Shown here one piece after another: positions 2,410-27,469 of a stretch of DNA of 58,225 bases (position 1 is the stretch's first letter; each line of letters opens with the position of its first letter). Origin of the DNA: a virus (lineage: Duplodnaviria > Caudoviricetes); the IMG/VR virus record IMGVR_UViG_3300049811_000412, positions 1-58,225 of that record; one strand, 5' to 3'. Below the pieces are notes generated by a model, which had not been told where the DNA came from, searched no databases, and saw nothing but the letters and a program-made list of their open reading frames with translations. Position numbers and translations under genes: made by a program.

Positions 2410-2485
2410 CGGCGGCTAAAACCGCTGTGTCGCTTTTCCGCCCCGCTCTAAAGAGACGGGGCTACCAAGCTCACGAGTTTTTATC

Positions 2486-3586
2486 GTGTGGAATGATGCA
2501 CTGGCACTGATTAAGTCAACGCCGAAAGGCGAGACGTGGCCCAGTAATGCTGAGTTGCAGAAAATCTGCATCACCCAAGCCAAGCAGGCTGAGGGACGGG
2601 AATGGCTGGCCGAGGTCAGCAACATCCCGTTGCAGCAGTCCATTCAGGACTTGGGCGTTGCATTCAAAAACTTCTTCGACTACCGCAAGGGAAAGAGGAA
2701 AGGATCACGGGTCGGGTTCCCTCGGTTTAAGAAGAAACTCAACCAGCAGTCCGCTCGTTTTCGGAAGGGCGGGTTCTCCATCAAGGCCGGGAAAGTCTAC
2801 CTGGCCAAGATTGGGCACATCAAAGCCAAGTGGTCAAGGCCATTGCCCTCTGAACCTAGCTCTGTCACAGTCATCAAAGACTGTGCAGGACGGTATTTCC
2901 TGAGCTTTGTGGTGGAGGTGGAGCCTATCACCGTCGAACCCAAAAACCAAGGGGTTGGCGTGGATTTGGGCATTGAAACCTTAGCGACCCTCAGTACCGG
3001 GGAGAAAATCAAAGCCCCGGACACTCAATTTCTGGACAAGCACATTCGCAAAGGGAAGCGAAAACTCGCTAGGGCCATGAAAGGCTCGAAGCGGCGTGAA
3101 TCGTTGCGACTGGCCATTGCCAGGATGGAGGCTAAACAGCGCGACATTCGCCAAGACTTCAACCAAAAGCTGGCTTCTCGCCTAGTGCGGGAAAACCGTG
3201 TGGTGGTCTTGGAGGACTTGAACGTGGCGGGAATGGTGAAGAACCGTTCTCTGTCCAGGGCGATTAGTCGGGCTGGATGGCGGCAACTTAGAACCCTCTG
3301 TGAGGGTAAGGCCCACCTGATCCACGACCGGGAGGTAAGAACCATCAGCCGATGGGAACCTACATCCCAAGTGTGTTCATGTTGTGGCTATCGCTGGGGC
3401 AAATTGGACTTATCGGTGCGGTCAGTGTTATGTCTCAACTGCGGGGCCGAACACGACCGAGACATCAACGCCAGCGTGAATATCTTGGCGGCTGGGCAAG
3501 CCGACCCGAATGGGCAAACGCTAAGCTATGTAAGACCCCAATCTGGGGCAGCGGCTTGTTTGTCTACCCATCAGGAGTACGCTTAG
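2486..3586 (+). pseudogene. tnpB: TnpB lacking the first ~28 residues
   Basis: Begins VWNDALAL, aligning with internal VYNDALAI of the 47217 TnpB; GVDLG, VLEDL, DRD and Zn ribbon intact. Confidence 0.88.
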
Positions 3587-8457: not shown

Positions 8458-8534
8458 ACCGGGGTGGTGGAACGGATTACCATGTCGGGTTCATACCCCG
8501 AAGATTGCAAGTTCAACTCTTGCCCCCGATACCA
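8458..8534 (+). tRNA. tRNA-Met(CAT), initiator-like
   Basis: ACCGGGG/CCCCGAT acceptor, TCGGG-TTCATAC-CCCGA anticodon arm, GCAAG-TTCAACT-CTTGC T arm, encoded CCA; TATGCT -10 at 8446. Confidence 0.88.
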
Positions 8535-8575
8535 TTTAAAAACGCGCTTAGTGGAGGTAGGTAGCGCACCCTCCA

Positions 8576-8600
8576 AGCCCTGGCTTTTGCTGGGGCTTTT
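8576..8600 (+). terminator. Intrinsic terminator after tRNA
   Basis: AAGCCC..GGGCTTTT hairpin plus U tract. Confidence 0.65.
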
Positions 8601-8899
8601 GTTTTGGGGCCAACGGGAATTCCCGTTGACGTAGGGATTTGCGATTAAGCACCCCAGCCCCCATGCCGCCTAGGTTTGTCGGATCGCAGGGCCAAAAAAT
8701 GGGTTTGCTTTGAAGCACTCGGTATCTGGCTGGACACAAAGGTTGTCCCAAAACGTGACAACCTCGCATACGGTGTATCTAGCCTGTGCAAGCCATGCAG
8801 GGCTGTCAACACCGCACCCATCGAACCGTCAAGGATTCCTTGACGGTTGACACTACCCCCACACCACACCTCCTGCATACTGTGTACTGTATACAATGC

Positions 8900-9250
8900 C
8901 CTTATATAGATAGATATTTATAAATAAATTACTAAGTATTTATTTCCTCCATTGGGGTGATAGTGTCAGTGCTTTTTCTTTTGTCAGCATAGTGTCAGTA
9001 GGGCGCTGACAGAATCAAACCCTTGCTACATCTAGGTTTCAGCTATTCAGTCAATCAGTCAGTGGAATTTCACCCCTAGCCGTTTTTTTAGGTAGTACAT
9101 AAAGCCCCTCTACCCTTATGGAGAAAAATATACCCCTATAGAACGCACTGACTGATTGACTGAATCGGCATGAACCTATGCATGGCAAGGGTTTGGGTCT
9201 GCTGACAATATGCTGTCACTACTGCTGACAGATAAAAACTGCTGACTGAA
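8900..9250. repeat. Candidate replication origin: AT-rich tract plus long imperfect inverted repeat of CTGAC/GTCAG units
   Basis: AT-rich 8900-8945; ATTCAGTCAATCAGTCAGTG at 9045 is the exact reverse complement of CACTGACTGATTGACTGAAT at 9146. Confidence 0.6.
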
Positions 9251-10393
9251 TCAAAACCCCGGCATCTCTGGCCTGTCGATCATGTGGGCGTAGTGTCGAG
9301 CGGTGGTCTCCGGGGTGTTGCCGAGGGTAGCGGCAACTTGGGGGATGGATGCGCCCTGCTCCAGGAGGTGGGAACCGAGGCTGTGGCGTGCCGAGTAGGG
9401 CACACGGTCGATCCCTGCGAGGGCACAAATGCGCTTCCAGATGCGCTGGCTAAAGTTGGAATCGTTGATCGGGTTGCCCCGTGGGGAGAGAAACACCAGG
9501 TTATCGGGCTTGGCATTGTCCGGCCTGCGATTTGTCAACATGGCCACCATGTCGGGATGGAGGGTGATGGTGCGGGCCTTGTTGGTTTTGGTGCCCTTGC
9601 GCTGCCGTGCCCAGCCAGCCGTCTTGCCATCGGGGCCACGGGCTAGGGATTCGGAGATGGTCACTTGCCCTCGCTCAAGGTCAATGTGCCTCCATCGCAG
9701 CCCCACCGCCTCCGAGGGGCGCACCCCCAGGTAGAACAGCGTCATGACAAAATCGTGGTAGGGCGCGGCGTAGCGGTCGGCCTTGGCAGCATCCAAGACG
9801 GTGCGGATCTGTGCGGCGGTGAGGGGTTGGCGCTTGGGGTTGGGTTGCCGTGCGGTCTTGAGGCGCGGGATATCGGCCCAAGGGTTGTTGGCTAGGTGCC
9901 CCTGCTTGGTGGTCCAACGGCCAAACCCTCGTAGGCGGGATAGGTTCTGGTTTGCCACCGTGGGGGATTGCCGGGATCGGAGGTGCTCCACAAAAGCGGT
10001 GGCCTCAGCCTCGGTGGTGATGTTCTTGCCCCATCGGGATAAGTGGCTGAGCAGCGGCTGGTATCCGGCGGTGATGGTCTGGCCGCTGGTTCCTTCCGAG
10101 CGGCGGTAGGCCATGAACCGCTCGAACAGTTCCGCCGTAGTGGCCTGGGGTGGCGGTGCCTCCGGTTCGGGCTGGGGCCGATAGCGCTCTAGGGTTGGGT
10201 CAAACTGTTCCCTCGCAATGTCGCCTTGGATTGTGGCCGCCAGAGCAACAGCGCGTTGATAGTTCAGCGGGCTATCGGGCAAGCCCAAAGCAAGCTGGTA
10301 GGGTTGGCGCTCATGCGTCCATCGCAGTCGCAACATCCCATTGCGGCTGGTGATGGATACACTGCCTTTCTTGGCCCGCCGTGGCCTACGCAC
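9251..10393 (-). CDS. int: Tyrosine integrase with N-terminal arm-binding domain
   Basis: GVRPSEAVGLRW, YSARHS, LGN, HY catalytic motifs; N-terminal LRLRW arm-binding beta domain. Confidence 0.93.
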   Translation of the reverse strand: MRRPRRAKKGSVSITSRNGMLRLRWTHERQPYQLALGLPDSPLNYQRAVALAATIQGDIAREQFDPTLERYRPQPEPEAPPPQATTAELFERFMAYRRSEGTSGQTITAGYQPLLSHLSRWGKNITTEAEATAFVEHLRSRQSPTVANQNLSRLRGFGRWTTKQGHLANNPWADIPRLKTARQPNPKRQPLTAAQIRTVLDAAKADRYAAPYHDFVMTLFYLGVRPSEAVGLRWRHIDLERGQVTISESLARGPDGKTAGWARQRKGTKTNKARTITLHPDMVAMLTNRRPDNAKPDNLVFLSPRGNPINDSNFSQRIWKRICALAGIDRVPYSARHSLGSHLLEQGASIPQVAATLGNTPETTARHYAHMIDRPEMPGF

Positions 10394-12847: not shown

Positions 12848-13311
12848 TAGCTACCCCTCACAATTACCACAAACTCAGCGGGCAGGTTGAACCCCTCGGC
12901 CATTGTTGCCCAGGTTTCTCGCTGGGCTGGGGATACCTCGGCCAGGGTGCAAATCTGACTATACAAAAAGGCAAACATGGCCGTTTGCCCTGTGCTGATC
13001 TGAGTCATCGCAGCAGGCAGCGCTTCTGTAATTCCAGGGTTAATCCCTCTCACAATAGCGGTTGCCGCTTGCCAATTTGGTTCCAATAAAATTGCCGCAT
13101 TCAGCGCATCCCAGTCTGGCTCTGGCAGTGCAGCGGGTGGCTCCCAAGTTGTTGTAATTTCCCCGGTCTCCCAATCTATAATCCATTCAGAGCGTGGGCC
13201 TGGGGGCAAAGGGTGGTCATCAGGTAGTTTCAAATACCGACCATCGGGAGCGACCCAATCATCCCCCGGCAGTATTAGCTGTGGCCCATTTGGTGTGTCT
13301 AATAGAATCAT
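12847..13311 (-). CDS. Putative tail fibre assembly or accessory protein
   Basis: Directly downstream of fibre gene; size and PEPDW motif. Confidence 0.45.
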   Translation of the reverse strand: MILLDTPNGPQLILPGDDWVAPDGRYLKLPDDHPLPPGPRSEWIIDWETGEITTTWEPPAALPEPDWDALNAAILLEPNWQAATAIVRGINPGITEALPAAMTQISTGQTAMFAFLYSQICTLAEVSPAQRETWATMAEGFNLPAEFVVIVRGS

Positions 13312-13319
13312 TTTTCCTG

Positions 13320-14489
13320 CTAGTAAATGAATAAAACTTGGCCAAGTAAAGCTGAAATCGGACTACTTGGCGCTAAATCTCTCTGATTAAATTTAATAGC
13401 ATTGCCTTCGACCACCACCAGTGGATAAGGCGTGATATTGGCATAATCTATGGTTGCGACTTTCAAAGTCGGACTTGATGGCAAGGCATATGCAGACGTC
13501 CATGAGAAAATGGTACTCGAATCAGTAGGAACGGAGGCTGCACCTACGCAAAACTCGACTATAACCAAGCGTAAAAACTCATTTACTCGGACACGAGTAG
13601 GATGACTCCCGACGAGAACCGGATCAAATTCAGCCCCAAACGTTAACGATAGAGTTGTCCAATTTCCTAGTGCAGGAATGCCTAAACTATCCCGAACTGT
13701 AGCACCTGACTCCGTCACCCAATCCGTACCATTACCCACAATAAAATTGCCATCATTGGGGGTCAATGCTGCAATGGTGGTTAGGTCGCTGTCAAGCGGT
13801 TGAGCACCAATGGCCGTGCGAAAGTCGGCGGCTGACAGGGCGCTGATAGTGTTGTCCGGGTTGACTCGTGGGAACGTGATTGCGCTGGGATTGGTGAGGG
13901 TGAACAGGTTGCTCCCTACCGTTGTGGCCCCTAGGGTTGTTCGTGCGGCGGCGGCGTTGGCGTCGTCAATTAGGCTTTTGCCATAGGTGCTGACGGTGTA
14001 GGTGCCGTAGGTGGTGGCCCCGGTTTTTTCCAGGGTGCCAGAGGTGGCCGCGGGAATAGCCCCGGCGCGGGTGATTTGGTCTGCTGTCCATCCCGACACG
14101 GTGGTGATGTTGGCAGGGACGCTGGTGATAGTTGACCATGCCTGGGTGTGGCTGGTAGGTGCTGCGCCGATGTAGGCGAGGGCGGCGGCGGCATCTGCCA
14201 ACGTCAGCATCCCCCGGCCATATCCTGTAGTCGTGAGGGCGGCAATGTCGGTGAGGTTGGTGTTGAGCGGCTGAGCATCGGTGATGCCAAATCCCTCTAG
14301 GGTAGTGGGCTTGCCGCTGATGCTGCCCCAAGTGACGCCCGTGCGACAGTAGGTGGCTAGGGCGTCAATGTCGATTCGGCCATCGCTAGAGCCGCCCACC
14401 TCCAAAAATTGCCCAGCAGCAGGGGCAACCAAGGCCAGGTCGGTGATGGTGTAGCCCGTGATGGGCAGTGTGGTAATCGGCGTGGTCAT
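13320..14489 (-). CDS. Tail fibre protein
   Basis: WGSISGKPTTLEGFGITDA fibre repeat; AAAARTTLG and AQPL-x-x-x-LT-x-IAAL repeats. Confidence 0.8.
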   Translation of the reverse strand: MTTPITTLPITGYTITDLALVAPAAGQFLEVGGSSDGRIDIDALATYCRTGVTWGSISGKPTTLEGFGITDAQPLNTNLTDIAALTTTGYGRGMLTLADAAAALAYIGAAPTSHTQAWSTITSVPANITTVSGWTADQITRAGAIPAATSGTLEKTGATTYGTYTVSTYGKSLIDDANAAAARTTLGATTVGSNLFTLTNPSAITFPRVNPDNTISALSAADFRTAIGAQPLDSDLTTIAALTPNDGNFIVGNGTDWVTESGATVRDSLGIPALGNWTTLSLTFGAEFDPVLVGSHPTRVRVNEFLRLVIVEFCVGAASVPTDSSTIFSWTSAYALPSSPTLKVATIDYANITPYPLVVVEGNAIKFNQRDLAPSSPISALLGQVLFIY

Positions 14490-16261
14490 AGAATGCGGGC
14501 CTCCCCGGTAGCGGTTACTCGAATGCCTCCAGCCACGGCGCGAACCTCCTTAGAAACCTGAACAGCGGGCGGGCTGATGGTGCCCCCCACAATGCGCCCC
14601 AACTCAATTCCCTTGCCCCCTATCGACGCATCGCGCTGGGTAATCACCAACTGCAACGCCTCTACCAGGTAACTCGTAGTGATTCCGCCTAGGGTAAAGT
14701 CTACGCGCTGCACGGGGTTGAAATTGGTGAGCCATTCGGCAGTAAGGTCTGCGGCCCACTTGATGGGGAACTGTCGGCCCTGACGGATGCGGCCCCAGTG
14801 TTCCGCCATCCGTCGGCATTGGGTATCGCTGATGCCCATCCCTGAGGGCAGTTGCACCGACCACAGCTTTTCGGCAAAGCCACTGCCCGCGGGCGAAGAG
14901 AAACGGGCTTGGCCCTGGAACTGCTTTTCGGTGCGTTGCTTTTCGGCGGGTCGGTAGGATGTAGCCGGGGGCGTGTTGTTGGTAGATGCGCCTCTGCGTT
15001 CGGGTAGAGAGGGCTGGGTCTGGTCAAAGTTGGTTTGGGTGCGCTGGTAGGTGTATTCCTCGGCCCCTACCTTTGTCCAGCGTTCGATGGTGATTTGGGC
15101 CTTAGCCAGTTGTGCCGTATTGCCAGTTCTCACAGAGCGCTCAATAGTCGTCCGCCGTTCCTTGAGGATGTCGTCAAAATCGTAGATGTACTGAATAGTG
15201 GTGCGTTCTGCCTGGATCAGCGAGTCAGGGTTGATGCTGTTGTCATTGGGAAACACAAAACCGATAGGCCGCTCAATAAGGTCAACTTCGGTTGTCAGCT
15301 TGGCATCCAAGGGATTGTAAATCTGAGTTTTGGTCAGCCGACTATCTACGGTCAGGGCATCAGGATTAACCCAGGGAATGTTTGGCATCACCACGCCCAG
15401 TGGTTGCTCTACCTGCTCAATGTAGATAGGCTGATCGGTGCCCCTATCCCGATAGGTAACGGTCGTCCGCACCGTCACCCCGTCTACCTCATCGGTGGTA
15501 ACAAAGCTCTCGTCCTCGACAGCCTCGATCTTATAGGTCGTCCCCTGCACCTTCACCACCTCCGGCGGTTGCTCCCCTGGTGCCTCTGGGATGTAGTCGG
15601 CCTCATTGGTGCCCACGGTGTAAGCGGCTAGGGGCGTGGCCAGGGCATCGAGGTCAAACGGCACCGCCCGGATTGCCCCATCGGCCTGTTGCCAGAGGAC
15701 GTGCTTAGCCGCGTAGGCCACCGATCCGGCGTAGGTCATCCACGAACCGCCCGTGTTTTTTTCTGGGCTGAAGGGCAGGTTCAACCCCGTCACAGTGTCG
15801 CTAAGGGTTGGTGCCCCAGCTTTGGCGAGGGCGCGGTTAATCAGCGTCGTTGCCCCGGTCGGTGTGCCGTACTCATCGGTGCCAGGGTCGCCCTCAGGGG
15901 CGCGATAGTTCAGCAGGTCGGCATCACCGCCGAGGTCGAGGCTGATGGTGGGCTGGCCAGGGTAAGGCCGATTCGGGTAGGCCAGAATCCGTAGGTGCCA
16001 TGGCAGGGGCACCCAGCCCGCCCCCAGGTCAACCGAGATCGCAACCACGGTTCCCGGTGCCCAGCGGGTGGGGTTGTCGCGGCAATCGAAGGACTCCGGT
16101 TGTCCCTCCCAGTAGGCGGCGAGTTCCAACTGCCCACGAGGCTTAAACCATCCGCTTTCGTCCCAGGTGCCCGCCCCAATGGAAAGCTGCACAAAAGCGG
16201 GGGAGAGGTCGAGTCCTCCCACCACCACCTGAACTGGAACGCTGCGAAGGTTAACGGTCAT
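14486..16261 (-). CDS. Tail hub or central tail-tip protein
   Basis: ~590 aa, downstream of tape measure and Dit-like gene. Confidence 0.6.
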   Translation of the reverse strand: MTVNLRSVPVQVVVGGLDLSPAFVQLSIGAGTWDESGWFKPRGQLELAAYWEGQPESFDCRDNPTRWAPGTVVAISVDLGAGWVPLPWHLRILAYPNRPYPGQPTISLDLGGDADLLNYRAPEGDPGTDEYGTPTGATTLINRALAKAGAPTLSDTVTGLNLPFSPEKNTGGSWMTYAGSVAYAAKHVLWQQADGAIRAVPFDLDALATPLAAYTVGTNEADYIPEAPGEQPPEVVKVQGTTYKIEAVEDESFVTTDEVDGVTVRTTVTYRDRGTDQPIYIEQVEQPLGVVMPNIPWVNPDALTVDSRLTKTQIYNPLDAKLTTEVDLIERPIGFVFPNDNSINPDSLIQAERTTIQYIYDFDDILKERRTTIERSVRTGNTAQLAKAQITIERWTKVGAEEYTYQRTQTNFDQTQPSLPERRGASTNNTPPATSYRPAEKQRTEKQFQGQARFSSPAGSGFAEKLWSVQLPSGMGISDTQCRRMAEHWGRIRQGRQFPIKWAADLTAEWLTNFNPVQRVDFTLGGITTSYLVEALQLVITQRDASIGGKGIELGRIVGGTISPPAVQVSKEVRAVAGGIRVTATGEARIL

Positions 16262-16566
16262 GCACCCACCTGCCCCCGCCCCAAAGGTGTGACATTGACT
16301 ATCCCGCAAACAACGTAAATAGGCTTAATTGGCTGTCCTGTTCGCTGGTGGTAGCGATCCACTCGGATAATTACCCTCGGATAATTGCAGCGCAATGTAT
16401 TTCCCGCCTTCTGTTTTGAAGAGGCTCGCCAATACTCAACACAGGCATTAGGGTTGCCATCGGGGGCAACGACCGAAATCACAACACCTTCACCTTCCTG
16501 GGATAGCCGTTCCCAGCGAACCCGTTGACCCATAAGGGCTGCGGCTTTTTTAAGGGTTGATTTCAT
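16258..16566 (-). CDS. Hypothetical basic protein
   Basis: Stop/start overlap with both neighbours. Confidence 0.55.
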   Translation of the reverse strand: MKSTLKKAAALMGQRVRWERLSQEGEGVVISVVAPDGNPNACVEYWRASSKQKAGNTLRCNYPRVIIRVDRYHQRTGQPIKPIYVVCGIVNVTPLGRGQVGA

Positions 16567-16778
16567 AGCTCAACCTCCATCTCCAGATCAATCGCCCTCA
16601 CCAGCGTTTGCTGGGCTTCGGTCAAATCCTGGATGCGGCTTTTGTGCCCTCGGCGTCCAGCACACAGCAGCTTTTTGATCGCATGGGCCGTGGCGGGGCA
16701 AGTCACCCCATAGGCTAGGAGGATGGCGTACACATCGGCGGGGCGTCCGTTGATTTCCACGTTGTAGGGGTTGCTCAT
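16563..16778 (-). CDS. DUF3310-like phage protein
   Basis: HAIKKLLCAGRRGHK..QDL-x-EA motif. Confidence 0.65.
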   Translation of the reverse strand: MSNPYNVEINGRPADVYAILLAYGVTCPATAHAIKKLLCAGRRGHKSRIQDLTEAQQTLVRAIDLEMEVEL

Positions 16779-16930
16779 CACAAACACACTCCATAAACAT
16801 CGCCGCCCCCGCCACCCTGAAGGCGTTTAGGAAATTCGTTTTTGCTAGCGGCCAAGGCAAACAGCGATAGCCCTATCGCTAGAACGACTAGGGCTATCGC
16901 AATCAGATCAGTTTGGCGCAGTGGACTCAT
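16778..16930 (-). CDS. 50-aa single-TM protein (below cutoff)
   Basis: MSPLRQTDLIAIALVVLAIGLSLFALAAS..; preceded by CCGACAAAAGACA leader. Confidence 0.6.
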   Translation of the reverse strand: MSPLRQTDLIAIALVVLAIGLSLFALAASKNEFPKRLQGGGGGDVYGVCL

Positions 16931-17023
16931 GGTGGTTAAGCCTGTCTTTTGTCGGTCGGTTTTAACTGCGCTTAGCCATATTTTGGTATTTACGGCGGCG
17001 CTTTAACAGGGTGCAATGTTGCA

Positions 17024-17200
17024 CTATTTCGCGTTGTCAATCTTATCGTTGAGTTGTTCAAGCTCTCGGAGCAATTGATCGGTTTCGCGGCTCGGCCCCA
17101 TGATGGTTTGATAGGTGTCAAACGCGACAAGGGCGGCACCTACGGCTACTAAAGCTAATGCCGCAATAATGACTTTTTTCTTCGTACTGGTGGTGTTCAT
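17024..17200 (-). CDS. 58-aa single-TM protein resembling the tape measure TM segment (below cutoff)
   Basis: AGGAGA RBS; MNTTSTKKKVIIAALALVAVGAALVAFDTYQTIMGPSRETDQLLRELEQLNDKIDNAK. Confidence 0.72.
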   Translation of the reverse strand: MNTTSTKKKVIIAALALVAVGAALVAFDTYQTIMGPSRETDQLLRELEQLNDKIDNAK

Positions 17201-17208
17201 AGAATCTC

Positions 17209-17700
17209 CTAAATTGCCAATCGTTTTGTGGTTTCGACCAGTTGGAACGTTGCCTTTATCATTGTACCCTTGGAGGTTTGACGCTCTAAGGTAAGGTCTC
17301 CGCTAAACCGCACATTGAACTGCGCCGGATACCGTACTACAGTGCCCACTGTCGCCACCGTTCCCCCCGTGGCCAATGCCCTAGTCCGTGGGGCCAATTC
17401 CGAGTAGTCGCGGCTGTAGTCATGCAACACCAGATCGCCGCTAGCAATCTGCCACAGGTTGAACATGGCCTCCAGGTTGTCGGCGTCACTAAACACCGTG
17501 GGGCTACTGCGCACGTCGCTCACCAGGGCCGAGATTTGCCACAGGTGCGGCGGCTCAAAGGATGTCCCACGCTGAATGGGGGTGCCGTAGGCGGTACGGC
17601 TAATCTCTGGCGTGTCGATGCGTTTGCGGGGCCACGATGCCCCATCAAATCGCGTGAAGGCCACCGATAGCCCTTGGTAGGTTAGTGTCAGTCCGCTCAT
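17209..17700 (-). CDS. Distal tail (Dit-like) protein
   Basis: Immediately after tape measure; size and beta-rich C-terminus. Confidence 0.6.
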   Translation of the reverse strand: MSGLTLTYQGLSVAFTRFDGASWPRKRIDTPEISRTAYGTPIQRGTSFEPPHLWQISALVSDVRSSPTVFSDADNLEAMFNLWQIASGDLVLHDYSRDYSELAPRTRALATGGTVATVGTVVRYPAQFNVRFSGDLTLERQTSKGTMIKATFQLVETTKRLAI

Positions 17701-20700
17701 ACATTTATCCCCGCTGTTTGGGCATTGGCAACATCATTCACAATTCGGCTAGTATCCGCCACGGGGTCGGGAGTCTGTACCGTCAGGTTTTCAATCCGTG
17801 AACCCAATCCCTGCTGAATCAGCGTATCAAGGCGTTGCACGATGGCGAGGTTTCCATCGGTAACGGCCTTGGCCAAATCGAACTCGGTTTGGGCCTCGGT
17901 CAAATTTTGATCCGCCTGAACCAGTTGGTTAATATCCCCCCGTCCAACGGCCTCCAATAGTTGGTTGATGATGGGGTTATTTTGCTGGGCCAATTCAATC
18001 AGTTTGGCATCGTCGCCACTGCTAACGGCCCGGCGTACATCCCTGGTGGCATCGTCAATATTTACGCCCTGGAATAGCCCTGCCTTTTGGGCCGTATCCA
18101 GTCGGTCGCCAATGCGTTCTAGGGAAGCCAAAGAGTCCTCTACCGAAGTATTAGATTCTGCTGCAAGGGCGCTGATAATGCCCCGCCGAGCATCGGCTAA
18201 TTTGTTGCCAGCCTCAGTCAGTTGGTTCTGCTTAATCTGCTCACTGGTGAGTTGTTGTTGCAGGCCAAGCTGTTGCTCTTGAATGCCCAACACCTGATCC
18301 GTAATCACCGCCGAATCACGGGCATAGCCGATCTGTTCCTGGCGCAATGCCGAAATTTCTTCTAGCCCCTGTACTTCTTCGGCGGTGGCCCCTTCAGCCT
18401 TCGCCCGCCGCACCGCAATGTCAGCCTCAATGGCGGCAATCTCGGCGGCCTGAATTGCCCGTTGGGCTTCAATTCTGGCAAGGCGAGAGGTTACCCGCTG
18501 CGAGTCAATCTTGGCTTTCAGTTCATCCTCTGCCGCCTGAATCTGCGACTCTGCCAGATCGGCGGTGATCTCCCGTTGCCCCCGTGCATCGCCTTCTGCC
18601 TTGGCCTGGGCGAGGGCGGTTCCTAGGCGGGTTTGCTCTAGGCTTGACTGAAGGGCAATCAACCCTTGGTTGGCCTCAATCAACCGCTGCTGATTTTGTA
18701 GGGCGGTTTGCTCTCGTTCAAAGCCTGCTTCCTTCTGTTGCTGTAGGCGCTGGAGTCCGGTTAGTTCGGCATCAATAGCTTTTAAAGCAACTTGTTTAGC
18801 AGCTTCATTGGCCTCAATCTGTAACTGAGCACCTTGGATGACCGCTTGGTTTATTTCAGTTTGTAATGCTGTAATTCGGCTAGCCGCATCCTTGGCAGAA
18901 ATTTGTTTTGTGCGTTCTAATTCTTGGACGGCTGCAACTTCCTGTTGCTTTAATGCAATGGTATCTTTTGTTAATTGTTGGTTCGCTTCCCGTGTCAGCC
19001 TTGCCGCTTCGTCTGCGTCAATTTCACCTGATGCCTGAGAGACTGCAATAGTTGCGGTTTTGCCAGTAAGGGATTGTTGTAGTGCATTTAGCGATTCTTC
19101 TGTCGCCCTTTGAGCCTCATCTTGCAAATCTTTTTGAGCCTCAATTTGCAGCTGAACACTTTGTTGACTTGCGTCTGCTATTTCACCTTGCAGCGCTGAA
19201 ATTCGATCTGCAGATTCTTCCGCCGTAATTACTTTGTCTCGCTCTAATGCGCGGACTCCTTCAATCTCCTTCTCTTTGGCTTCAATAGTATCTTTTATTA
19301 GTTTTTGATTGACTTCTCTAGTCTGTCTTGCAGCCTCGTTTGGGTCAATCTGCCCTGAGAGCTGCTGTTCAAGAATCCCTGTAATTTTTGTTGTAGCACC
19401 TTGGTTTAAGGCTTCTTGTGCTTGCTGGGCAGTGCGTTCAAAATCTTCTAGCTGCTCAGCGTTTTTTGTCTTCAGCGTTTCAATAGTATTGTTCGCTAAA
19501 GCAATGCGGTCTTGGGCTAAAGCCTGCTCAAGTCGCAGAATTTCATCATTGGTAGCTTGGACGTCTTCGGGTGTTGCTCCAGACTGATCAAGGTTTTTAA
19601 GTTTATCAAGTGCTTCTTGATTGGCTTTAGTTCTATCTTCAATCGCTTTTTTGTCGGCTTCAGCGATTTTAGTATTGACATTTTCCGGCGTAGTATTACC
19701 CGCTGCCTGCCCTTCTAGTGCTGTGGCTTGTGCTTCAAGGTTTGTTAACTCAATTCCGCCTAGAGTCTCGGATAAAGCTGTTTTGGCTGAATTTAGCTTT
19801 TTACTCAAACCTTCAACTGAATCGCCCAGGTCTTCGGTGCCCTCGGTCAATTCCCCAGTGGCATTGTTGGCATCGCCCATGGTGCCCGTGGTAGCGGTTA
19901 GCCCATTGCGGTAATTCCGCAGGCGTTCGATTTGGGCATCGCGTTTTTTGGTATCTTCCTCACTGAGGTTGATCTGTTGTTCTAGTCCGGCAATGGTCGT
20001 GTCAATGGCCTGAATCGTGGCCGTTACTTGCCCTGGGGGGATTTCAGTGCCACCCTTTAGCGCTGCCCCTAAGTCAATCGCGGCTTGCTCTGTTTCTCCA
20101 GCTTTCAGCGAGATTCGTGCAAAATTTCGCGCTGTACGATTTGCCGCCGCCTCTGCCGCCGTAGGAAGGCCAGGAATCCGATCACGAATCCCGTCTAAGG
20201 CCCGCTGCACTCGATTCAGCGGGACATTGTTTAACTCTGAAATGCCATCCTTAGCCTCTCCAGAGGTCACCGCGACCTCGGCTAAGGCTTTGTCAATATC
20301 CTTGATGCCTTTGTTGGTTCGTCCAGTCGATGCATTGATCGACCGCCAGGTGTCAAACGCAGCCGCCACAGATGCCACGGCACCAACCGCCAAGCCCCCA
20401 ACAACAGCAATCGATCCAACCCCGGCAAGGACTGGCCCCAGTGCCCCCGCCGCTGCGGTTTGAAGCGCCCCAAAGGCTGCCCCGACACCAGCCAGCCCAC
20501 CACCTGCTGCCACAAAGGCCGCTGTAGCCGCCCCTACTGCCGTCGCGATGCCTCCCCATGCCGCCTTGGCAACGTTGCCGACCTTGCCTACCAACCCGCC
20601 CAGCTTGCCCATCACCCCGGCGTTGGCAGCGGTAGCAGCGGTGTTTCCCGTGAGAGCCGCAGTATTGGCCCCAGTCGCCGCCGTTGATGCCCCTCGCGCC

Positions 20701-23700
20701 GCCACACTGGCCACCAAGGATTGGGTCAGGAACTTGGTGACTTGGTCGTTGGCAAACGTCACTGCCGCATTGGCGACCTTGGCCGCAGTGCCAGCCACTA
20801 CCGCCGCTGTCTCGGCAATCTGTGTCCCAACGGCCTGGATCATGCCGATATTCCACACTGCCGTTGCCGCCGCCACAGCGCCCAGCACCCCGGTCAATCC
20901 AATCAGCACCGAGATCGCCCCACTGATGGGGGCTGGCAAGGCTTGGAACCCGCCTAGCAATGCCGCCGTTGCCCGTGCCACTGCTTCCGCCGCAGGGGCG
21001 AACGTGCCAAACATCACCGACGCTGCACCCTCAGCAGCACTACTCAGCAGGTCAAGGGCACCTGTTAGCCCCTGACCCATGGCCTCGCCCGCCCGTTGGC
21101 TGAATCCTTGAGATTCGGCAATGGCCATATTGAGTTGATCGACCTGCTCAGCGCTGGCCCCCATCAGGGCAGTGAAGGCGCGGCCCCCACGTTCGCCAAA
21201 GAGTTGTTGCTCAATGGTTTCTTTTTGCTGAACGGTGAGGTTAGCAAAGTTTGCACGGAGTTGCGGCAGCGTCTCACTAAAATCTTTCAGCGTTCCATCG
21301 GCATTGCGGATATTGACATCTAAAAGCTGAAAAGCCTTAGTTGCATCGTTTTCAACGCCTCTAGCAAGTTCGGCACTGGCTACCTTCAACTCATCAAACA
21401 CCGCCCCCAGGTTGGTACCCGCACGGCTGCCCACAATGCCCGCATTGGCCAGCAAGCCCAACAGTAGGGAGGTGGTTTCGATGGACTGGTTAGAGGCCTT
21501 GGCTTGCCCCCCAACATAGCTCAGCGCCTCGCCTAGCCCCTCCACGTCGGTTGCCGAATTGGAGGCCGTCACGCCCAGCACATCCACAAAACGCAAGGCA
21601 TCGCTACCGCTGGCCTGGAACTGGGTTAGGGCTTTCGCCGCTACCTCGCCCAGCACGCTCATATCAGTGGATGTGGCAATGGCCCCCAACGTGACGCCCT
21701 TCAACGCCTGCTCAATGTTGGACGCTGAAACACCCGCCCGCGACATTTCAACAGCGGTTTGCTGAACTTCAGCAGCGGTGAAGGCCGTTTCCGCCCCCAA
21801 CCGTGCTGATTCCTTGGTAACGGCTTCGATCTCTTCAGCGCTAGCCCCCGCTGCTCCGGCCAAGATAGCAAACTGTTTGGTCTGCTGTTCAAAGTCGAGG
21901 AACGTGTTAGCCCCGAATTTGAACGCCTTACTAATCCCCGTGGCAATGGCACCCCCGGCGATGGCAGTGGCAAAGTTATCGGCACCATCGGCTAGCTTCT
22001 GTTGCTCTCGGTTTGCAGCGGCGAGGGCTTTTTCAACCTGCTTAACCTCGGCCTCACTCAGGCCGTATTCCTGCCGGAGTTTGGCTGCTGTCACCGCTGC
22101 CCGTTGGTTTTCGGCCTGGATTTTCTTAACCGCTGCCTCTAACTGTTGGGCTTGTTTGGGGTCAAGGTCAGCCCCTTCTAGTAGTGCTTTGTCTGCGGCT
22201 TGTTGGGCTTGTAGTCGGGCTTGGGCATCCGCAGCGCGTTCAAATTCACGGGCAAAGTCTTCGGCCTCTTTGACCTGACGTTTGAACGACAAGGCTTCTT
22301 CCCGCTGGGCTAATTTTTCAGCTTGAATCTGTGCCCGTTCTAGGGCTTTGGCCATGCGTTCAGATTCATTGAACTGCCGTTTTAGTTCCAGCAATTCCGC
22401 CTGAGTCTTCAATTTTTCCTGACTCGCCGCAGCCCGATCTAACTCATTGGTGATGAGCTTTAGTTCGTCAATTTGCTTGCGGTAGCTAATATCATCGGCT
22501 TGTTTTTGTCGTCGTTCTTCAGCCTTTGTCGCTGCCTCCAATTCCCGCGACAGTTGCTTAATATCGGCCAGCGCTTTCTCGTAGCTTAGATTCTGCGCCT
22601 GCTCTTTGGCATCAGCGGTTAGCTTAGCCGCCCGCCCCACATCAACGGCCAATTGCTTGATGTCGGACATTGCCGATTCATAGCTCAAATTACGAGCTTT
22701 TTGTTCAGCATCCGCCGTTGCTTTACTGGCTCGGTCTAGGTCTGCCGCCAGTTGTTTGACATCAGCTAGCGCCTTCTCATAGCTAATGTTTCGCGCCTTT
22801 TGATCGGTGTCTGCCGTTGCCTTCCTGGCTGCATCTAAATCCGCCGATAGTGTGCGAATATCTGCCAGGGCAGCTTCATAGCTAATGTTGCGGGCTTTCT
22901 GGTCAATATCCGCCGCTGCATTGGCGGCACGTTCGTTATCTTTGGCTAACTTATCCGCTTCAATGGCAGCTTTCTTAAAGTCAAGATTACGGGCCGACTC
23001 TGCCGCCGCAAATGCCGATTTAGAAGCCTGCTCTGCCTCCCGTGCAAGCTGTGCAGCGTCCGCCGCTGCTTTGCGATAGTCAAGCTCTTGGGCCTGCTGA
23101 TTTAGCTTGGCCTGATAGTTGGCAATACCTTCGGTTTCTTTAACTAGGGCATTGGCTTCCTTGGTCGCATTTTTGAACGTGAACTGTTTTTGCAGTTCGG
23201 TCAATTCACGGGCGGCGACCTGCCCCCGTTCAATGGCATCGGCTAGCGCCAGGGCTTCCCCAGTTTGGCGAGTCAGGTTAAGCCGATCTACAGCGGTGAC
23301 AATGGCCTCAGCTTTTTTCGCCGCTGCGTCTAACCGTTCCTTGAGGGTATTGGCCTGTTCGGTAACAGGCTTAATGTTGAGAGCGCTGGTGACTTCTTTG
23401 TTTTTACCAAGGGAAGTTTTGACCGCATCAAATGCCGGGGCAATGGCACGGGCTTCCTGTAGTATGTCTTTGAAACTGAGGCTTTGTTGTTCTGTCTTGA
23501 GCTCACGAAAAGCGGTGATGCTAGCGTTGATTCGCTCTAGCAACGTCCCGGCATCATTCAGCGCTTTCTCGAAGGTAATCCGCTCGGCGTTGGTGGCCAG
23601 AGTGCCGCTTTTATCAGCGGCGGTGCTGAGTTTGTCCGCAAGGGTTTTTGACTCGTCCGCCTGGGTTTTGAATTTGAAAGAAGCCAGCTTATCGGCGATT

Positions 23701-26700
23701 GTCTTAAACGCATCGCGGGCCTCTTTGAAGCTGGTTGCTAATGCCTTAGCTTCAGTGATTTGTTCCGTCAGGTTAAACGCTGTCTTATTCTGCGCTAACC
23801 ATTGGAACATCCCCGCAACTTTCTCGATGGCCTTATACAGGGAATCCGATTGGCTAAGCTGAGCATCTAGCTTAATTCGCCCTACCGCCCGCTGCATTTC
23901 ATCAATGCGAGTGGCGATGGTCTTATAGGAATCGGCTAGTTGCTTGCTTTGGTCTAGGGGCGTCTTGAGGCTAAATGATTTGATGCTTTCTGCCAGCTTG
24001 GCATAAGCTGTCTGGGCATTCTTTAGCCCTGTTGCCAATCCATCAGATTCTTTTACTGGCCCGGCAAAGCTCACCTCAGCTTTATTTTGGATAAGGAAGT
24101 TCATCCAAGTTGAGGCGGATTTAAGAGCCTCGGCCAGATCCGTCGCCTGCTGGATACCTTTGGTAAAGTCAAGCTTCTCGGCCTTGGTAGAGATGGCAGT
24201 AACGCTATTTCCCGCCGCCTCAAAACGAGCGTCTAGGGTTTGGGCCTCGCTAAGAACGTCCTTAAATTTGATGCCCTTTTGGTTGGTGCTGAGCTTGCCC
24301 GTTGCCGTGGCCATTGTGTTTAGGGCGGTGCCTAGCTCCTTGGCATCCTGAGCGATAGCCGCAAAGCTGATGGTGGCGAGGATGCCCTTAAACTCTTGAA
24401 TGCTGGTTTGAGCTTGGGTCAGCTTGGCAACAAAGGCTTCAGCGCTGGCATTGGGCTTTTCAAAGTTGATGGTAGAGAGTGTCCCCAGGAGGGCTTGGGC
24501 GGCGTTCTCGCTACTCTCTAGGGAAGCCGCAAAGCTAGCCGTAGACTGGGCCTGGCCATCTAACGACAGCCGCCCTTGCCCATCGATGATTTCCCTCAGC
24601 ACTGTTGCCGCTGCTTGCAGTTTGGCCGATAGGTCTTGAACTTCGGCAATGGTGGGGGCAAAGTTCAGCGCCTTCTGCTGGATCACCAGGGTCTCTACCG
24701 CATTGGCAGCGGCCAACAGTGGATCGACTAGGGCAGCGGCAGCGGCAATTTGTTTGGAAAGGTCTAGGCCAGAAATGCCCTCGCTCAACGCCTTCACTTT
24801 GGTGTTGACGTTGGTGAGCTTAGTCGCCATCGAGCCAATCTGTTTCACCGCATCGGTTAGGGCCGTGGCGAGGCTTTGGGCTGCGGCACTGGCCCCAGCG
24901 GCGGCACTGGCGGCGGCTTGGCTGCTTTCCTTGGCCAATCGGTCTAGGTCGGTGAGCGCTTCCTTAAAGTCAATCTCACGAGCCTTCTGGGCGGTGTCGG
25001 CAATGGCAGCGGCGGCGCGTTCGTTGTCATTCGCCAGTTGGTTGATGTCGGCTAGGGCTTGGGCAAAGTCTAGTTCCCGCGCTTTGGCGGCGGTGTCGTC
25101 AGCGGCGGCGGCGGCACGCTCTAGGTCATTGGCGGCGGCTTGCAGTTGGGCTACCTGCTCTAGGTAGCTGAGGGCGGCGGCGGCATTGCTGAGGGCCGTC
25201 TGGGCGATGCTGGCCTTATCTAGGTCGCTGGCAACTGCTTCGATCTGGCCAGCGGTGTCGAGGTAGTTCAGGGAACCTGCCTGATCATTCAGTTGCCCCT
25301 GCGAGGTTGCCGCCTGCTCTAGGTTGCTGGCAACGGCGTCTAGCTGCCCAATGGTGTCGGAGTAGTTGAGGCCATTGGCGCTATCGTTCAACTGGGCCTG
25401 AGCCGACTGGGCGCGTTCTAGGCCATCGGTAGCGGATTGAATGTCGGTGAGGTTTTGCTGATAGTTGAGGGAATTGACCTGCTGGTTAAACTCACCCTGG
25501 GCCGCGCTGGCTTGGGTAAGGTCAGCCGCGACGGCCCCGATCTGCGCCGCTACATCGCCATAGTTCAGCGCCTCGGAGGATGCATTGAGTTGGGCCTGAA
25601 GGTCTACGGCTTGGTTAATCGACTGAGTGACCCCCTCCAGTTGCGCCGCCACGTCGCCATAGTTCAACCCTTCAGAGGATGTGTTGAGTTGGGCTTGGGA
25701 TTCACTGGCCTGCGATAGGTTTTGGGCAACGGTGCCTAGCTGAGCATTGGCATTGGCATAGTCGAGGGTTTGGGCTTGGCTGTTCAGTTCCAGTTGGTCG
25801 CCCTTGGCCTGCTCTAGGTCTTGCCGGAAGGCGGCAACCTGGGCCGTGTTTTCGGCATAGTTGAGGGCGGCAACTGCGTCATTGAGTTGGGCCTGTTCGT
25901 TGCGGGCTTGTTCTAGGCTTTGGGCAGCGGCGGCAATCTGTGCGGTCTTGTCGGCATAATTGAGGGCATTGACTTGATCATTCAGTTGCCCTTGCTCAGA
26001 TCGAGCGCTGGCAATGTCCCGCGCAATGCCTTCCACCTGAACGCCGGGGGCAGCATAGTTGAGCGTTGCCGCCTGGTCGTTCAGTTGAGATTGTTCAATT
26101 TTGGCCCGCTCTAAATCTCGCGCAATGGCTTCCACGTCGGTCGCCTTGCGCTGGTAGTCTAGGCCATCAACCTGATCATTCAGTTGAGCCTGAGAAGATA
26201 CCGCCCGATCAACGTCTTGGGCAATGGCTTCAATAGATGCGGCCTTGTCGCCATAGTTGAGGGCAACGACTTGGTCATTGAGAACGGACTGACTATTTTT
26301 GGCTTGGTCAATGCTATCGGCGGCAGTGCGAATTTCTGCCGTAGCCCTCGCATAATCTAGGGCAGCAGCACCTTGGTTCAGCAACGATTGAGCGTCACTC
26401 GCCCGACCTAATTCTGTCGAGATGGCCAGGATCTCGCCTTGCGGTTGGCTGTAGCTTAGCCCCTGGCTGACCTTGATGATCTGAGTCAGAAAGTTGGTGG
26501 CTTGTCCTAGCTGCTCCGCAAGGGCAAACGCCTCCTGTTCAACCCGCTTATAGCTGAGGGCATCTTGGGTATGGTTCAGCAGTGCTTGGGCATCCCGTGC
26601 CCGTTCCAATTCCTGGGCCAGCCCTGCCGATTCTGCTTTGGCTTTGTCGAAGGTTAGGGCGATAGCTTGGTTGGTTAAACTCTGGGCTTCCCGTGCCGCT

Positions 26701-27020
26701 TTTTCTAGTTCAATAGCAAGCTTTCTGGCCTCACCAACCCCGATGATATATTGCTCGACAAACTTAGCCGCAATGATGGCCGCGCCGTCGGTGGTGTTCG
26801 ACATTTTGACGATGGCTTGCTCAATCGCCGTCACCATCGTGGCTTGGTTTTTGAATTGCTTCCCAAGCTCTGCAATTGCCGCCTCTGCCGCCTCAGTTTT
26901 GAGGGTGACCTTAATCTCGGCGGATTCTTTTTTGAGACGAGCCTGGAGCTTTTTTAGCTGAGCATCAAGGCTGGCTAGGTTTAGCTCAACGCCAAAGGAA
27001 ACTGACCCTACCTGGCTCAT
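17697..27020 (-). CDS. Tail tape measure protein, 3107 aa
   Basis: Ala/Gln-rich helical repeats; TP901-type core (LGAETAFTAAEV..GIVGSRAGTNL) ~21100-21900; Gly/Ala TM region. Confidence 0.95.
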   Translation of the reverse strand: MSQVGSVSFGVELNLASLDAQLKKLQARLKKESAEIKVTLKTEAAEAAIAELGKQFKNQATMVTAIEQAIVKMSNTTDGAAIIAAKFVEQYIIGVGEARKLAIELEKAAREAQSLTNQAIALTFDKAKAESAGLAQELERARDAQALLNHTQDALSYKRVEQEAFALAEQLGQATNFLTQIIKVSQGLSYSQPQGEILAISTELGRASDAQSLLNQGAAALDYARATAEIRTAADSIDQAKNSQSVLNDQVVALNYGDKAASIEAIAQDVDRAVSSQAQLNDQVDGLDYQRKATDVEAIARDLERAKIEQSQLNDQAATLNYAAPGVQVEGIARDIASARSEQGQLNDQVNALNYADKTAQIAAAAQSLEQARNEQAQLNDAVAALNYAENTAQVAAFRQDLEQAKGDQLELNSQAQTLDYANANAQLGTVAQNLSQASESQAQLNTSSEGLNYGDVAAQLEGVTQSINQAVDLQAQLNASSEALNYGDVAAQIGAVAADLTQASAAQGEFNQQVNSLNYQQNLTDIQSATDGLERAQSAQAQLNDSANGLNYSDTIGQLDAVASNLEQAATSQGQLNDQAGSLNYLDTAGQIEAVASDLDKASIAQTALSNAAAALSYLEQVAQLQAAANDLERAAAAADDTAAKARELDFAQALADINQLANDNERAAAAIADTAQKAREIDFKEALTDLDRLAKESSQAAASAAAGASAAAQSLATALTDAVKQIGSMATKLTNVNTKVKALSEGISGLDLSKQIAAAAALVDPLLAAANAVETLVIQQKALNFAPTIAEVQDLSAKLQAAATVLREIIDGQGRLSLDGQAQSTASFAASLESSENAAQALLGTLSTINFEKPNASAEAFVAKLTQAQTSIQEFKGILATISFAAIAQDAKELGTALNTMATATGKLSTNQKGIKFKDVLSEAQTLDARFEAAGNSVTAISTKAEKLDFTKGIQQATDLAEALKSASTWMNFLIQNKAEVSFAGPVKESDGLATGLKNAQTAYAKLAESIKSFSLKTPLDQSKQLADSYKTIATRIDEMQRAVGRIKLDAQLSQSDSLYKAIEKVAGMFQWLAQNKTAFNLTEQITEAKALATSFKEARDAFKTIADKLASFKFKTQADESKTLADKLSTAADKSGTLATNAERITFEKALNDAGTLLERINASITAFRELKTEQQSLSFKDILQEARAIAPAFDAVKTSLGKNKEVTSALNIKPVTEQANTLKERLDAAAKKAEAIVTAVDRLNLTRQTGEALALADAIERGQVAARELTELQKQFTFKNATKEANALVKETEGIANYQAKLNQQAQELDYRKAAADAAQLAREAEQASKSAFAAAESARNLDFKKAAIEADKLAKDNERAANAAADIDQKARNISYEAALADIRTLSADLDAARKATADTDQKARNISYEKALADVKQLAADLDRASKATADAEQKARNLSYESAMSDIKQLAVDVGRAAKLTADAKEQAQNLSYEKALADIKQLSRELEAATKAEERRQKQADDISYRKQIDELKLITNELDRAAASQEKLKTQAELLELKRQFNESERMAKALERAQIQAEKLAQREEALSFKRQVKEAEDFAREFERAADAQARLQAQQAADKALLEGADLDPKQAQQLEAAVKKIQAENQRAAVTAAKLRQEYGLSEAEVKQVEKALAAANREQQKLADGADNFATAIAGGAIATGISKAFKFGANTFLDFEQQTKQFAILAGAAGASAEEIEAVTKESARLGAETAFTAAEVQQTAVEMSRAGVSASNIEQALKGVTLGAIATSTDMSVLGEVAAKALTQFQASGSDALRFVDVLGVTASNSATDVEGLGEALSYVGGQAKASNQSIETTSLLLGLLANAGIVGSRAGTNLGAVFDELKVASAELARGVENDATKAFQLLDVNIRNADGTLKDFSETLPQLRANFANLTVQQKETIEQQLFGERGGRAFTALMGASAEQVDQLNMAIAESQGFSQRAGEAMGQGLTGALDLLSSAAEGAASVMFGTFAPAAEAVARATAALLGGFQALPAPISGAISVLIGLTGVLGAVAAATAVWNIGMIQAVGTQIAETAAVVAGTAAKVANAAVTFANDQVTKFLTQSLVASVAARGASTAATGANTAALTGNTAATAANAGVMGKLGGLVGKVGNVAKAAWGGIATAVGAATAAFVAAGGGLAGVGAAFGALQTAAAGALGPVLAGVGSIAVVGGLAVGAVASVAAAFDTWRSINASTGRTNKGIKDIDKALAEVAVTSGEAKDGISELNNVPLNRVQRALDGIRDRIPGLPTAAEAAANRTARNFARISLKAGETEQAAIDLGAALKGGTEIPPGQVTATIQAIDTTIAGLEQQINLSEEDTKKRDAQIERLRNYRNGLTATTGTMGDANNATGELTEGTEDLGDSVEGLSKKLNSAKTALSETLGGIELTNLEAQATALEGQAAGNTTPENVNTKIAEADKKAIEDRTKANQEALDKLKNLDQSGATPEDVQATNDEILRLEQALAQDRIALANNTIETLKTKNAEQLEDFERTAQQAQEALNQGATTKITGILEQQLSGQIDPNEAARQTREVNQKLIKDTIEAKEKEIEGVRALERDKVITAEESADRISALQGEIADASQQSVQLQIEAQKDLQDEAQRATEESLNALQQSLTGKTATIAVSQASGEIDADEAARLTREANQQLTKDTIALKQQEVAAVQELERTKQISAKDAASRITALQTEINQAVIQGAQLQIEANEAAKQVALKAIDAELTGLQRLQQQKEAGFEREQTALQNQQRLIEANQGLIALQSSLEQTRLGTALAQAKAEGDARGQREITADLAESQIQAAEDELKAKIDSQRVTSRLARIEAQRAIQAAEIAAIEADIAVRRAKAEGATAEEVQGLEEISALRQEQIGYARDSAVITDQVLGIQEQQLGLQQQLTSEQIKQNQLTEAGNKLADARRGIISALAAESNTSVEDSLASLERIGDRLDTAQKAGLFQGVNIDDATRDVRRAVSSGDDAKLIELAQQNNPIINQLLEAVGRGDINQLVQADQNLTEAQTEFDLAKAVTDGNLAIVQRLDTLIQQGLGSRIENLTVQTPDPVADTSRIVNDVANAQTAGINV

Positions 27021-27469
27021 AGTGATGCAAGCTCCATCTCATCTCGGTTAATTTGCCGCACCGCCCATTCAGGCAGCTTCCCTTGGTCGGCTAGGGAAAG
27101 CCAAAGCTTGGCCGTTTCGGGGGTCATGTAGTGGTTGAGCTCTTGCTTTCGCTTCACCACCGCCGCCCAGTTGAACCAGTCCCGCTTTGGCTTTTTCACC
27201 CCCTGGGCACTCAGGAGGGCCACCCCTAGATCGGCTAGGCTGCGACTGTCGTAGTCAATGCGTCGGAGTCGTTCTTCTTCGTAGCTCGCGATGGCTTGCC
27301 CAATGACGTGGACGGGGCATTGTCCAAAGGCTCGGCCTGTGAATCGAGGGTGGTTAGGGTAGTACTGCTGGAGTTGCCAGTAGATGCTGACCCAGTCGGT
27401 GGGTTCTTCCCTTCCCGCTGAAGCCGATACCCCTCTCGTTCTGCGGCGAGGGCCGTGCGGTCGTTTCCC
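27017..27469 (-). CDS. Tail assembly chaperone frameshift extension (gpT-like)
   Basis: -1 frame open from ~27475 to 27017 (PTDWVSIYWQLQQYYP..); G GGA AAC heptamer at 27463-27469. Confidence 0.65.
   Translation of the reverse strand, partial: GKRPHGPRRRTRGVSASAGREEPTDWVSIYWQLQQYYPNHPRFTGRAFGQCPVHVIGQAIASYEEERLRRIDYDSRSLADLGVALLSAQGVKKPKRDWFNWAAVVKRKQELNHYMTPETAKLWLSLADQGKLPEWAVRQINRDEMELASL

Follow-up and report, generated by a model that had tools for sequence, protein, structure and literature searches.

How the tape measure protein (TMP) of a siphophage opens a DNA channel in the inner membrane, and how HK97 gp15 or T4 Imm block this opening, is poorly understood. The locus described here raises a question close to this problem, namely, what a very small gene for a membrane peptide reminiscent of one helix of the phage's own TMP is doing among tail genes. 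The gene lies on the minus strand at 17024-17200 of an IMG/VR virus record of 58,225 bases, classed as linear and ∼70% complete, which is referred to below as the window. It is an ORF of 177 nt with an ATG start, and its 58-aa product is predicted to be a single-pass membrane peptide.

Several features lead us to interpret the source as a temperate siphophage captured in the prophage state. A tyrosine integrase gene (9251-10393, minus strand) adjoins a tRNA-Met gene (8458-8534, plus strand), the region from 8458 to 10393 being the probable attachment site and prophage end. The left flank of the window contains IS200/IS605 transposase genes and a fragment of an FAD oxidoreductase gene, and on the minus strand is a module of siphovirus structural genes, which encode the small and large terminases and the portal, scaffold, major head, neck, and major tail proteins. 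The replication/early region encodes a Prim-Pol/PriCT-2/DUF3987 primase-helicase-like protein (44142-46850, minus strand), a PAPS-reductase-domain protein (49651-50880, minus strand), and a protein with GIY-YIG and HTH domains (52704-53345, plus strand). IS200/IS605-type elements occupy 646-3586 and 47136-48428, with TnpB-like ORFs at 646-1959 (minus strand), 2486-3586 (plus strand), and 47136-48428 (plus strand), one copy being located inside the phage region, and with a Y1 TnpA gene at 2005-2409 (plus strand). The only named relative of the tail genes of the window belongs to a MAG of the cyanobacterium Tildeniella torsiva, and of 401 genomes sampled from the class of T. torsiva, 15 contain matches to a profile of the 163-aa tail protein described below. 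Based on these relatives, the host of the phage is most likely a cyanobacterium. Among phage records, no DNA relatives of the tail region were found.

The TMP, a protein of 3107 amino acids encoded at 17697-27020 (minus strand), was recognized by its PhageMin_Tail domain (PF10145, residues 1736-1942, E = 1.8e-34) and by tblastn matches to annotated TMPs, the best of which was that of cyanophage PSS2. After this domain comes a hydrophobic stretch of ∼270 residues, which extends to about residue 2226. Its last hydrophobic helix and the A-F-D-T-W exit that follows (residues 2210-2244; 20289-20393, minus strand) form the segment that the peptide resembles. The TMP is unusually long, and its residues ∼130-640 carry many protein repeats of ∼33 residues (Q-L-N-D/S ... 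L-N-Y); TRF detected no DNA tandem repeats in the gene, so the repeat copies must have diverged.

The 163-aa tail protein (17209-17700, minus strand) is encoded directly upstream of the peptide gene and overlaps the end of the TMP ORF. Its structural model (pLDDT 83) has a tail-tube/Hcp-like fold, and the best Foldseek rows were phage baseplate, tube-initiator, and tube chains, although these matches were weak (best E = 0.013, TM score 0.47). A search of its profile against PDB sequences gave nothing meaningful. The model and the position of the gene suggest a distal tail (Dit-like) or tube-initiator protein. Further downstream is a conserved tail gene of 607 codons (14486-16309, minus strand), hub-like by its position, whose product has no Pfam, PHROG, or PDB sequence match. 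It is followed by the gene of a 389-aa protein (13320-14489, minus strand) in which short motifs recur and whose PHROG hits are weak (E = 5e-4 to 9e-4); this protein may be a fibre or receptor-binding protein.

The architecture claimed for the peptide in the original prediction, which had been made from the DNA letters alone, proved correct in its basic elements. The ORF and its ribosome-binding site are present, an AGGAG Shine-Dalgarno-like sequence (17206-17210, minus strand) being located 5 nt before the ATG and overlapping the TAG stop codon of the 163-aa gene, from which the peptide gene is separated by an 8-nt gap. The proposed KKK topology signal corresponds to K7-K9, ahead of a predicted transmembrane helix at residues ∼10-27 (17120-17173, minus strand) with a Kyte-Doolittle 17-residue maximum (KD17) of 2.91. 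The helix ends in an F-D-T-Y membrane-exit motif (F27-D28-T29-Y30; 17111-17122, minus strand). An AlphaFold model based on a five-row alignment (mean pLDDT 74) consists of helices 3-34 and 39-57 and has no globular domain; the second helix (17030-17086, minus strand) is amphipathic, net acidic, and predicted to be periplasmic. Following the positive-inside rule applied to K7-K9, we infer that the peptide is a single-pass inner-membrane protein of N-in/C-out topology, and the combination of a basic N terminus with a strongly hydrophobic helix leads us to expect its insertion in the membrane of the producer cell. A signal peptide or lipoprotein was ruled out by the lack of any cysteine and of an A-x-A site conserved in the family. 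The GC content of the peptide gene is 0.48 compared with 0.58 and 0.60 for the flanking tail genes, a difference to be read with the gene's length of just 177 nt in mind.

Searches with the peptide itself were unproductive. Homologs were found neither in phage GenBank records (tblastn, E ≤ 10) nor in IMG/VR (pattern search and tblastn), and a word-indexed search of 5.8 billion proteins returned the peptide alone. Against 1.84 billion representatives, phmmer returned no accepted homolog, the only match besides the peptide being a 508-aa repetitive fibre-like protein (E = 9e-4) that we dismissed as a low-complexity match. A protein atlas search gave a single feature hit of 0.76 and no family. 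The neighboring genes were more informative. The 163-aa protein had no tblastn match in phage records, and IMG/VR yielded no relatives with this protein, with its profile, or with TMP residues 1950-2350; in protein searches, 36 proteins were retrieved at E ≤ 0.001, itself included, i.e., 35 relatives. A profile built from 34 of these 36 rows, two fragments (P0026 and P0033) being left out, identified four short metagenome contigs (L003 to L006; 1.1 to 1.8 kb, ending short of the TMP transmembrane region) on which the 163-aa protein is 60 to 74% identical to that of the window.

All four contigs carry an ORF of 55 to 59 amino acids at the position of the peptide gene (that of L004 is truncated by the contig end), which starts at the stop codon of the 163-aa gene or a few bases from it; in L003 and L006, its stop codon overlaps the start of the homolog of the 607-aa gene, which thus follows directly. 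Each of the four peptides has a basic N terminus, a single strongly hydrophobic helix (KD17, 2.3 to 2.9), an exit motif of the form W-D-T-Y, W-N-T-Y, or S-T-Y, and then a Ser/Thr-rich linker and an acidic tail. In the resulting family of five members, K8, I12, A13, L15, A19, T29, and Y30 are invariant. The dN/dS ratio is ∼0.3 in the least saturated pairs (0.29 for L004/L006 and 0.34 for L004/L005) and spans 0.24 to 0.36 in unsaturated pairs, the other pairs being saturated at synonymous sites or ranging from 0.22 to 0.53. By these sequence comparisons, the peptide gene is genuine, conserved, and under purifying selection. It exemplifies a conserved small gene that sequence searches miss altogether (0 homologs in sets of 5.8 and 1.8 billion sequences) and that synteny can nevertheless recover.

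In the more distant relatives that we examined, the gene is missing. We examined 18 places in cyanobacterial prophages (16 places in 15 genomes and 2 more) that encode more distant homologs of the 163-aa protein, and the peptide was present at none of them. In 11 of the 18, the homolog of the 163-aa gene is followed directly by that of the 607-aa gene, and the remaining 7 have other or no clear genes downstream. At none of the 18 places does a small ORF encode a helix of similar hydrophobicity (KD17 of small ORFs, at most 1.85), and the family HMM found no further member in all the loci that we fetched. Presence in 4/4 close relatives and in 0/18 distant places indicates a lineage-specific insertion, and absence from the distant places argues that the peptide is not part of the core tail machine. 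The peptide has also diverged faster than its neighbor, with 30 to 38% identity versus 60 to 74% for the 163-aa protein. In the window, an additional block (16258-16930, minus strand) separates the peptide gene from the 607-aa gene; it holds three small ORFs, of which the 50-aa one is hydrophobic, the product of the 74-aa one matches phrog_2452 (E = 4e-24), and the third encodes 102 amino acids. It is absent from L003 and L006 and must represent an extra insertion, given that in these contigs the peptide stop codon overlaps the start of the 607-aa homolog. From these comparisons, the junction between the Dit-like and hub-like genes looks like a hot spot for the insertion of accessory genes.

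Insertion between genes that are adjacent in relatives is the positional hallmark of a moron in the Hendrix/Juhala sense, and the available part of PMC3594210 describes morons as having their own promoter and terminator. The peptide gene fits a moron by its position, without such signals of its own: a consensus scan of the minus strand detected no sigma-70-like promoter near the gene, and the only terminator-like sites on this strand are at 16881-16862 and 16220-16201, in numbers at or below those of shuffled sequences. The overlaps of start and stop codons with the flanking tail genes in the relatives rather point to late coexpression of the peptide with the structural genes than to its expression from the prophage.

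The most distinctive claim made for this gene was that its product resembles the transmembrane exit of the TMP. The proposed TMP site (about 20285-20390) agrees with the computed one (20289-20393): residues 15-49 of the peptide align without gaps to residues 2210-2244 of the TMP, with 10 of 35 positions identical and a BLOSUM62 score of 53. The best ungapped score between the two proteins, 59, is on this same diagonal, and the suggested comparison with shuffled sequences was favorable, since the alignment score exceeded those of all shuffles. None of 300 shuffles of the whole peptide reached 59 (mean 37.0, standard deviation 4.4, maximum 55), nor did any of 300 in which residues were shuffled within the N terminus, the transmembrane segment, and the C terminus (maximum 53). 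Of the features said to be shared, the transmembrane helix and the F-D-T-aromatic exit stand, whereas the common heptad tail is weak, the tail of the peptide being net acidic and that of the TMP net basic.

Other comparisons converge on the same segment. When the peptide was compared by phmmer with the six frames of its own record, 20289-20408 (minus strand) was the sole match besides the gene itself (E = 0.003). Over the 35 aligned codons, 56 of 105 bases are identical, which ranks first among 3073 in-frame TMP windows (mean 28.5, standard deviation 4.6). The codons of A-F-D-T are identical in the peptide and TMP genes, within a 13-nt exact match (17113-17125 and 20348-20360). Such a repeat is not significant alone, as we estimate that tens of pairs of 13-mers are expected in 58 kb, and it was therefore counted only within the in-frame nucleotide identity. 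Identical A-F-D-T codons across this match make a related origin of the peptide and the TMP exit plausible. BLASTP with compositional adjustment did not report the alignment of the peptide with the TMP.

An independent test was provided by an HMM built only from the peptides of the four relatives, which owes nothing to the sequence on which the prediction was made. Within the TMP, this relatives-only HMM gave a single positive domain, at residues 2210-2246 (9.9 bits), and the HMM of all five sequences matched residues 2210-2244 (14.7 bits). Decoys were then prepared from TMP residues 1950-2300 by block shuffling, with block lengths of 12, 20, or 35 residues. In this context, the relatives-only HMM scored 13.5 bits, a value reached by 1, 0, and 0 of 3000 decoys, respectively, and the five-sequence score of 18.0 was never reached. 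As a natural control, 800 kb of sequence was taken from two cyanobacterial genomes, in which 920 stop-to-stop frames of at least 120 amino acids comprise 268,893 residues and ∼721 hydrophobic segments. One of these frames scored at or above 9.9 bits with the relatives-only HMM (10.4 bits), and none attained 14.7 bits with the five-sequence HMM (maximum 11.7 bits). Scaled to a target of 3107 residues, this natural background gives a p value of ∼0.01 for the TMP match. The likeness originally noticed for one peptide thus extends to the whole family, as judged by the relatives-only HMM, the block shuffles, and the natural control.

We also asked how the family HMMs score other phages. The DNA upstream of 16 further homologs of the 163-aa protein, together with a Tildeniella locus (L008), gave 17 loci, in 14 of which the longest ORF has at least 900 codons; we presume that these ORFs encode TMPs. 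One of the 14, in locus L080 (G349:C1:4784800-4797300), was matched (13.2 and 11.8 bits) at residues ∼1458-1500, corresponding to its last hydrophobic helix and a D-T-Y exit, and the other 13 scored at most 0.4 bits. When 6500 six-frame ORFs from the window and from all phage loci were searched together, the TMPs of the window and of L080 ranked highest outside the family, both at the exit of the last transmembrane helix. In the L080 prophage itself, the 163-aa homolog (L024) is not followed by a peptide gene. Altogether, these sequence comparisons indicate a position-specific similarity of moderate strength between the peptide family and the last transmembrane exit of the TMP, and the resemblance is probably real and specific to one type of TMP helix.

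Two other presumed TMPs, those of L070 and L077, have a last-helix exit like that of the window TMP, in which small hydrophobic residues are followed by E-S/T-x-R-S/A-I/V-G-E. This suggests that an exit signature with acidic, hydroxyl, and R-S-I elements is conserved in a subset of cyanophage TMPs. A protein search with TMP residues 2040-2340 among candidates of near length gave no scored match, the TMP of the window being itself left unscored. A complex prediction for the peptide with TMP residues 2150-2270 scored 0.00, against a mark of 0.32, a result that counts neither for nor against an association.

Phage proteins that act on injection provide the closest functional parallels, and a block to genome entry is the effect best documented for such proteins. 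Pfam searches with all five family members at E ≤ 1 detected no YebO, Imm, holin, or other family, and the PADLOC-DB models gave 0 families for the peptide at the same threshold. In the available part of PMC3594210, HK97 gp15 is presented as a small, moron-encoded inner-membrane exclusion protein of the YebO family, whose gene is flanked in the tail operon by those of the tail chaperone and the TMP. The exclusion that it confers depends on the tail region of the incoming phage. Like gp15 as described there, the peptide is, by prediction, a small single-pass inner-membrane protein of a temperate siphophage, and its accessory gene lies within the tail operon near the TMP gene, inserted between genes that are adjacent in relatives. 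In contrast to that of gp15, however, the peptide gene follows the Dit-like gene and is translationally linked to its neighbors, and its product has no YebO or other Pfam match; conversely, the same part of PMC3594210 does not report gp15 as resembling the TMP.

T4 Imm, according to the accessible text of a preprint (bioRxiv 10.64898/2026.03.06.709160), acts at genome translocation and copurifies with the TMP gp29, which it binds directly. Imm and the peptide are both small phage-encoded inner-membrane proteins, the latter by prediction, but Imm as described there is a multihelix protein of 83 to 94 residues from a lytic myovirus that binds the helical bundle domain of the TMP, whereas the peptide has a single transmembrane helix in its model, would mimic a transmembrane helix of the TMP, and has no sequence match to Imm. 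The same text compares the TMP/Imm pair with a system in which membrane proteins obstruct, inside the membrane, a helical domain that forms pores; these proteins are unrelated to the peptide and belong to a different biological system, so that the parallel is an analogy only. Another prophage exclusion protein, Ltp of Streptococcus phage TP-J34, has the TMP as its identified target, as cited in the portion of PMC11480721 available to us, where it is described as a lipoprotein with a folded extracellular domain that acts electrostatically on the TMP C terminus. The peptide, unlike Ltp, has neither a cysteine nor a lipobox, and its model comprises just two helices.

Its accessory status, the temperate lifestyle of the phage, and its likeness to a TMP helix that is presumed to become embedded in the membrane together suggest that the peptide engages the TMP transmembrane region during injection. 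The reading that we favor, with a probability of roughly 35%, is that of an accessory inner-membrane protein that would engage this region and block injection, by analogy with HK97 gp15 or T4 Imm. The peptide would reside in the cytoplasmic membrane of a cell that harbors the phage or expresses it, where its transmembrane helix and periplasm-side F/W-D/N-T-Y collar would copy the last transmembrane helix and exit of the phage's own TMP. It would then pair with the transmembrane helices by which the TMP, once inserted, forms the DNA conduit, and the most likely outcome would be that related incoming phages fail to complete their channel, i.e., superinfection exclusion at the injection step. Several observations count against exclusion. 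The main one, which concerns exclusion from the prophage state, is the operon structure: no promoter or terminator of its own was detected for the gene, which is coupled to both neighbors in the relatives. In addition, the L080 prophage has a matching TMP exit motif yet lacks the peptide, and no known exclusion family is related in sequence to the peptide, to which the natural-background p value of ∼0.01 and the BLASTP miss must be added.

The original prediction proposed a TMP-derived decoy giving dominant-negative superinfection exclusion, or else a channel helper. In the decoy version as we conceive it, the last helix and collar of the TMP would have been copied into a free peptide that intercalates among the TMP helices of a related incoming phage, competes with them, or competes for their host membrane partner, thereby poisoning channel assembly, which would amount to a self-derived form of exclusion. 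We consider this version rather unlikely. Our searches of the full-text literature for a TMP-mimicking membrane peptide or a self-derived dominant-negative exclusion found no description of either.

Other explanations have to be weighed against an injection block. That the ORF arose by chance in an intergenic or overlapping region and is not a functional gene might be argued from the lack of sequence homologs in two very large protein searches, but this is very improbable given the strong Shine-Dalgarno sequence, the dN/dS values well below 1, and the preservation of position, length, topology, and motifs in 4/4 relatives. The peptide may instead be a positive helper of its own TMP that is made late with the tail-tip proteins, either as an extra helix for the TMP channel upon ejection or as a factor handling the TMP hydrophobic region at the membrane during tail-tip assembly. 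Such a role would agree with the TMP likeness and with conservation in 4/4 close relatives, and the operon structure (start/stop overlaps with the Dit-like and 607-aa genes in relatives, the 8-nt gap with an overlapping Shine-Dalgarno sequence in the window, no promoter of its own) would suit a late-made helper equally well. Nevertheless, we judge it doubtful. The peptide is absent from all 18 distant prophages with the same flanking tail genes, and its basic N terminus and helix (KD17, 2.9) should direct it to the membrane of the producer cell and not to the tail lumen. To our knowledge, a free small transmembrane subunit is without precedent in siphophage tails.

A membrane role without relation to the TMP, such as timing lysis in the manner of a holin or antiholin or modulating the membrane in some other way, is a tentative alternative that we hold to be possible but not probable. 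The TMP likeness would then be due to chance or to convergence between Ala/Val/Gly-rich helices with an aromatic interface collar. A small protein with one transmembrane helix and a charged C terminus has the general shape of a holin, the weak, topology-level PHROG hits of the peptide include an Rz-like spanin (E = 0.031), no endolysin or holin was recognized elsewhere in the window (the record being ∼70% complete), and the failure of BLASTP with compositional adjustment to find the TMP, like the natural-background p value, leaves room for coincidence. However, 0/5 members match a holin family, and the neighbors are tail genes, a tail-tip neighborhood being unusual for lysis genes. Chance or convergence would also have to account for the identical A-F-D-T codons and for the relatives-only profile, which picks the same TMP helix and the last transmembrane helix of a second TMP, whereas a match of this quality occurs at most once among 13 other long ORFs and the ∼721 hydrophobic segments of the natural control.

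A natural peptide family that resembles one specific TMP helix would single out this helix, together with its D-T-aromatic collar, as a place of functional contact. The peptide would also offer a simple and mutable probe of the transmembrane-transmembrane interaction involved in injection or exclusion.

Metagenome runs from wastewater and ponds, none of which is recorded as RNA, contain the window at small shares (0.06 to 0.14). Among the short Logan contigs of these runs, near-identical pieces cover the peptide gene in two of them (record 4 of X1 and record 11 of X2), and none joins it to the TMP exit. For the window region 13000-27100, the wastewater and pond runs X1 to X4 contain short contigs that match portions of the tail region with 80 to 100% identity. 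By these sequence matches, the phage or its close relatives are present in several wastewater and pond samples.
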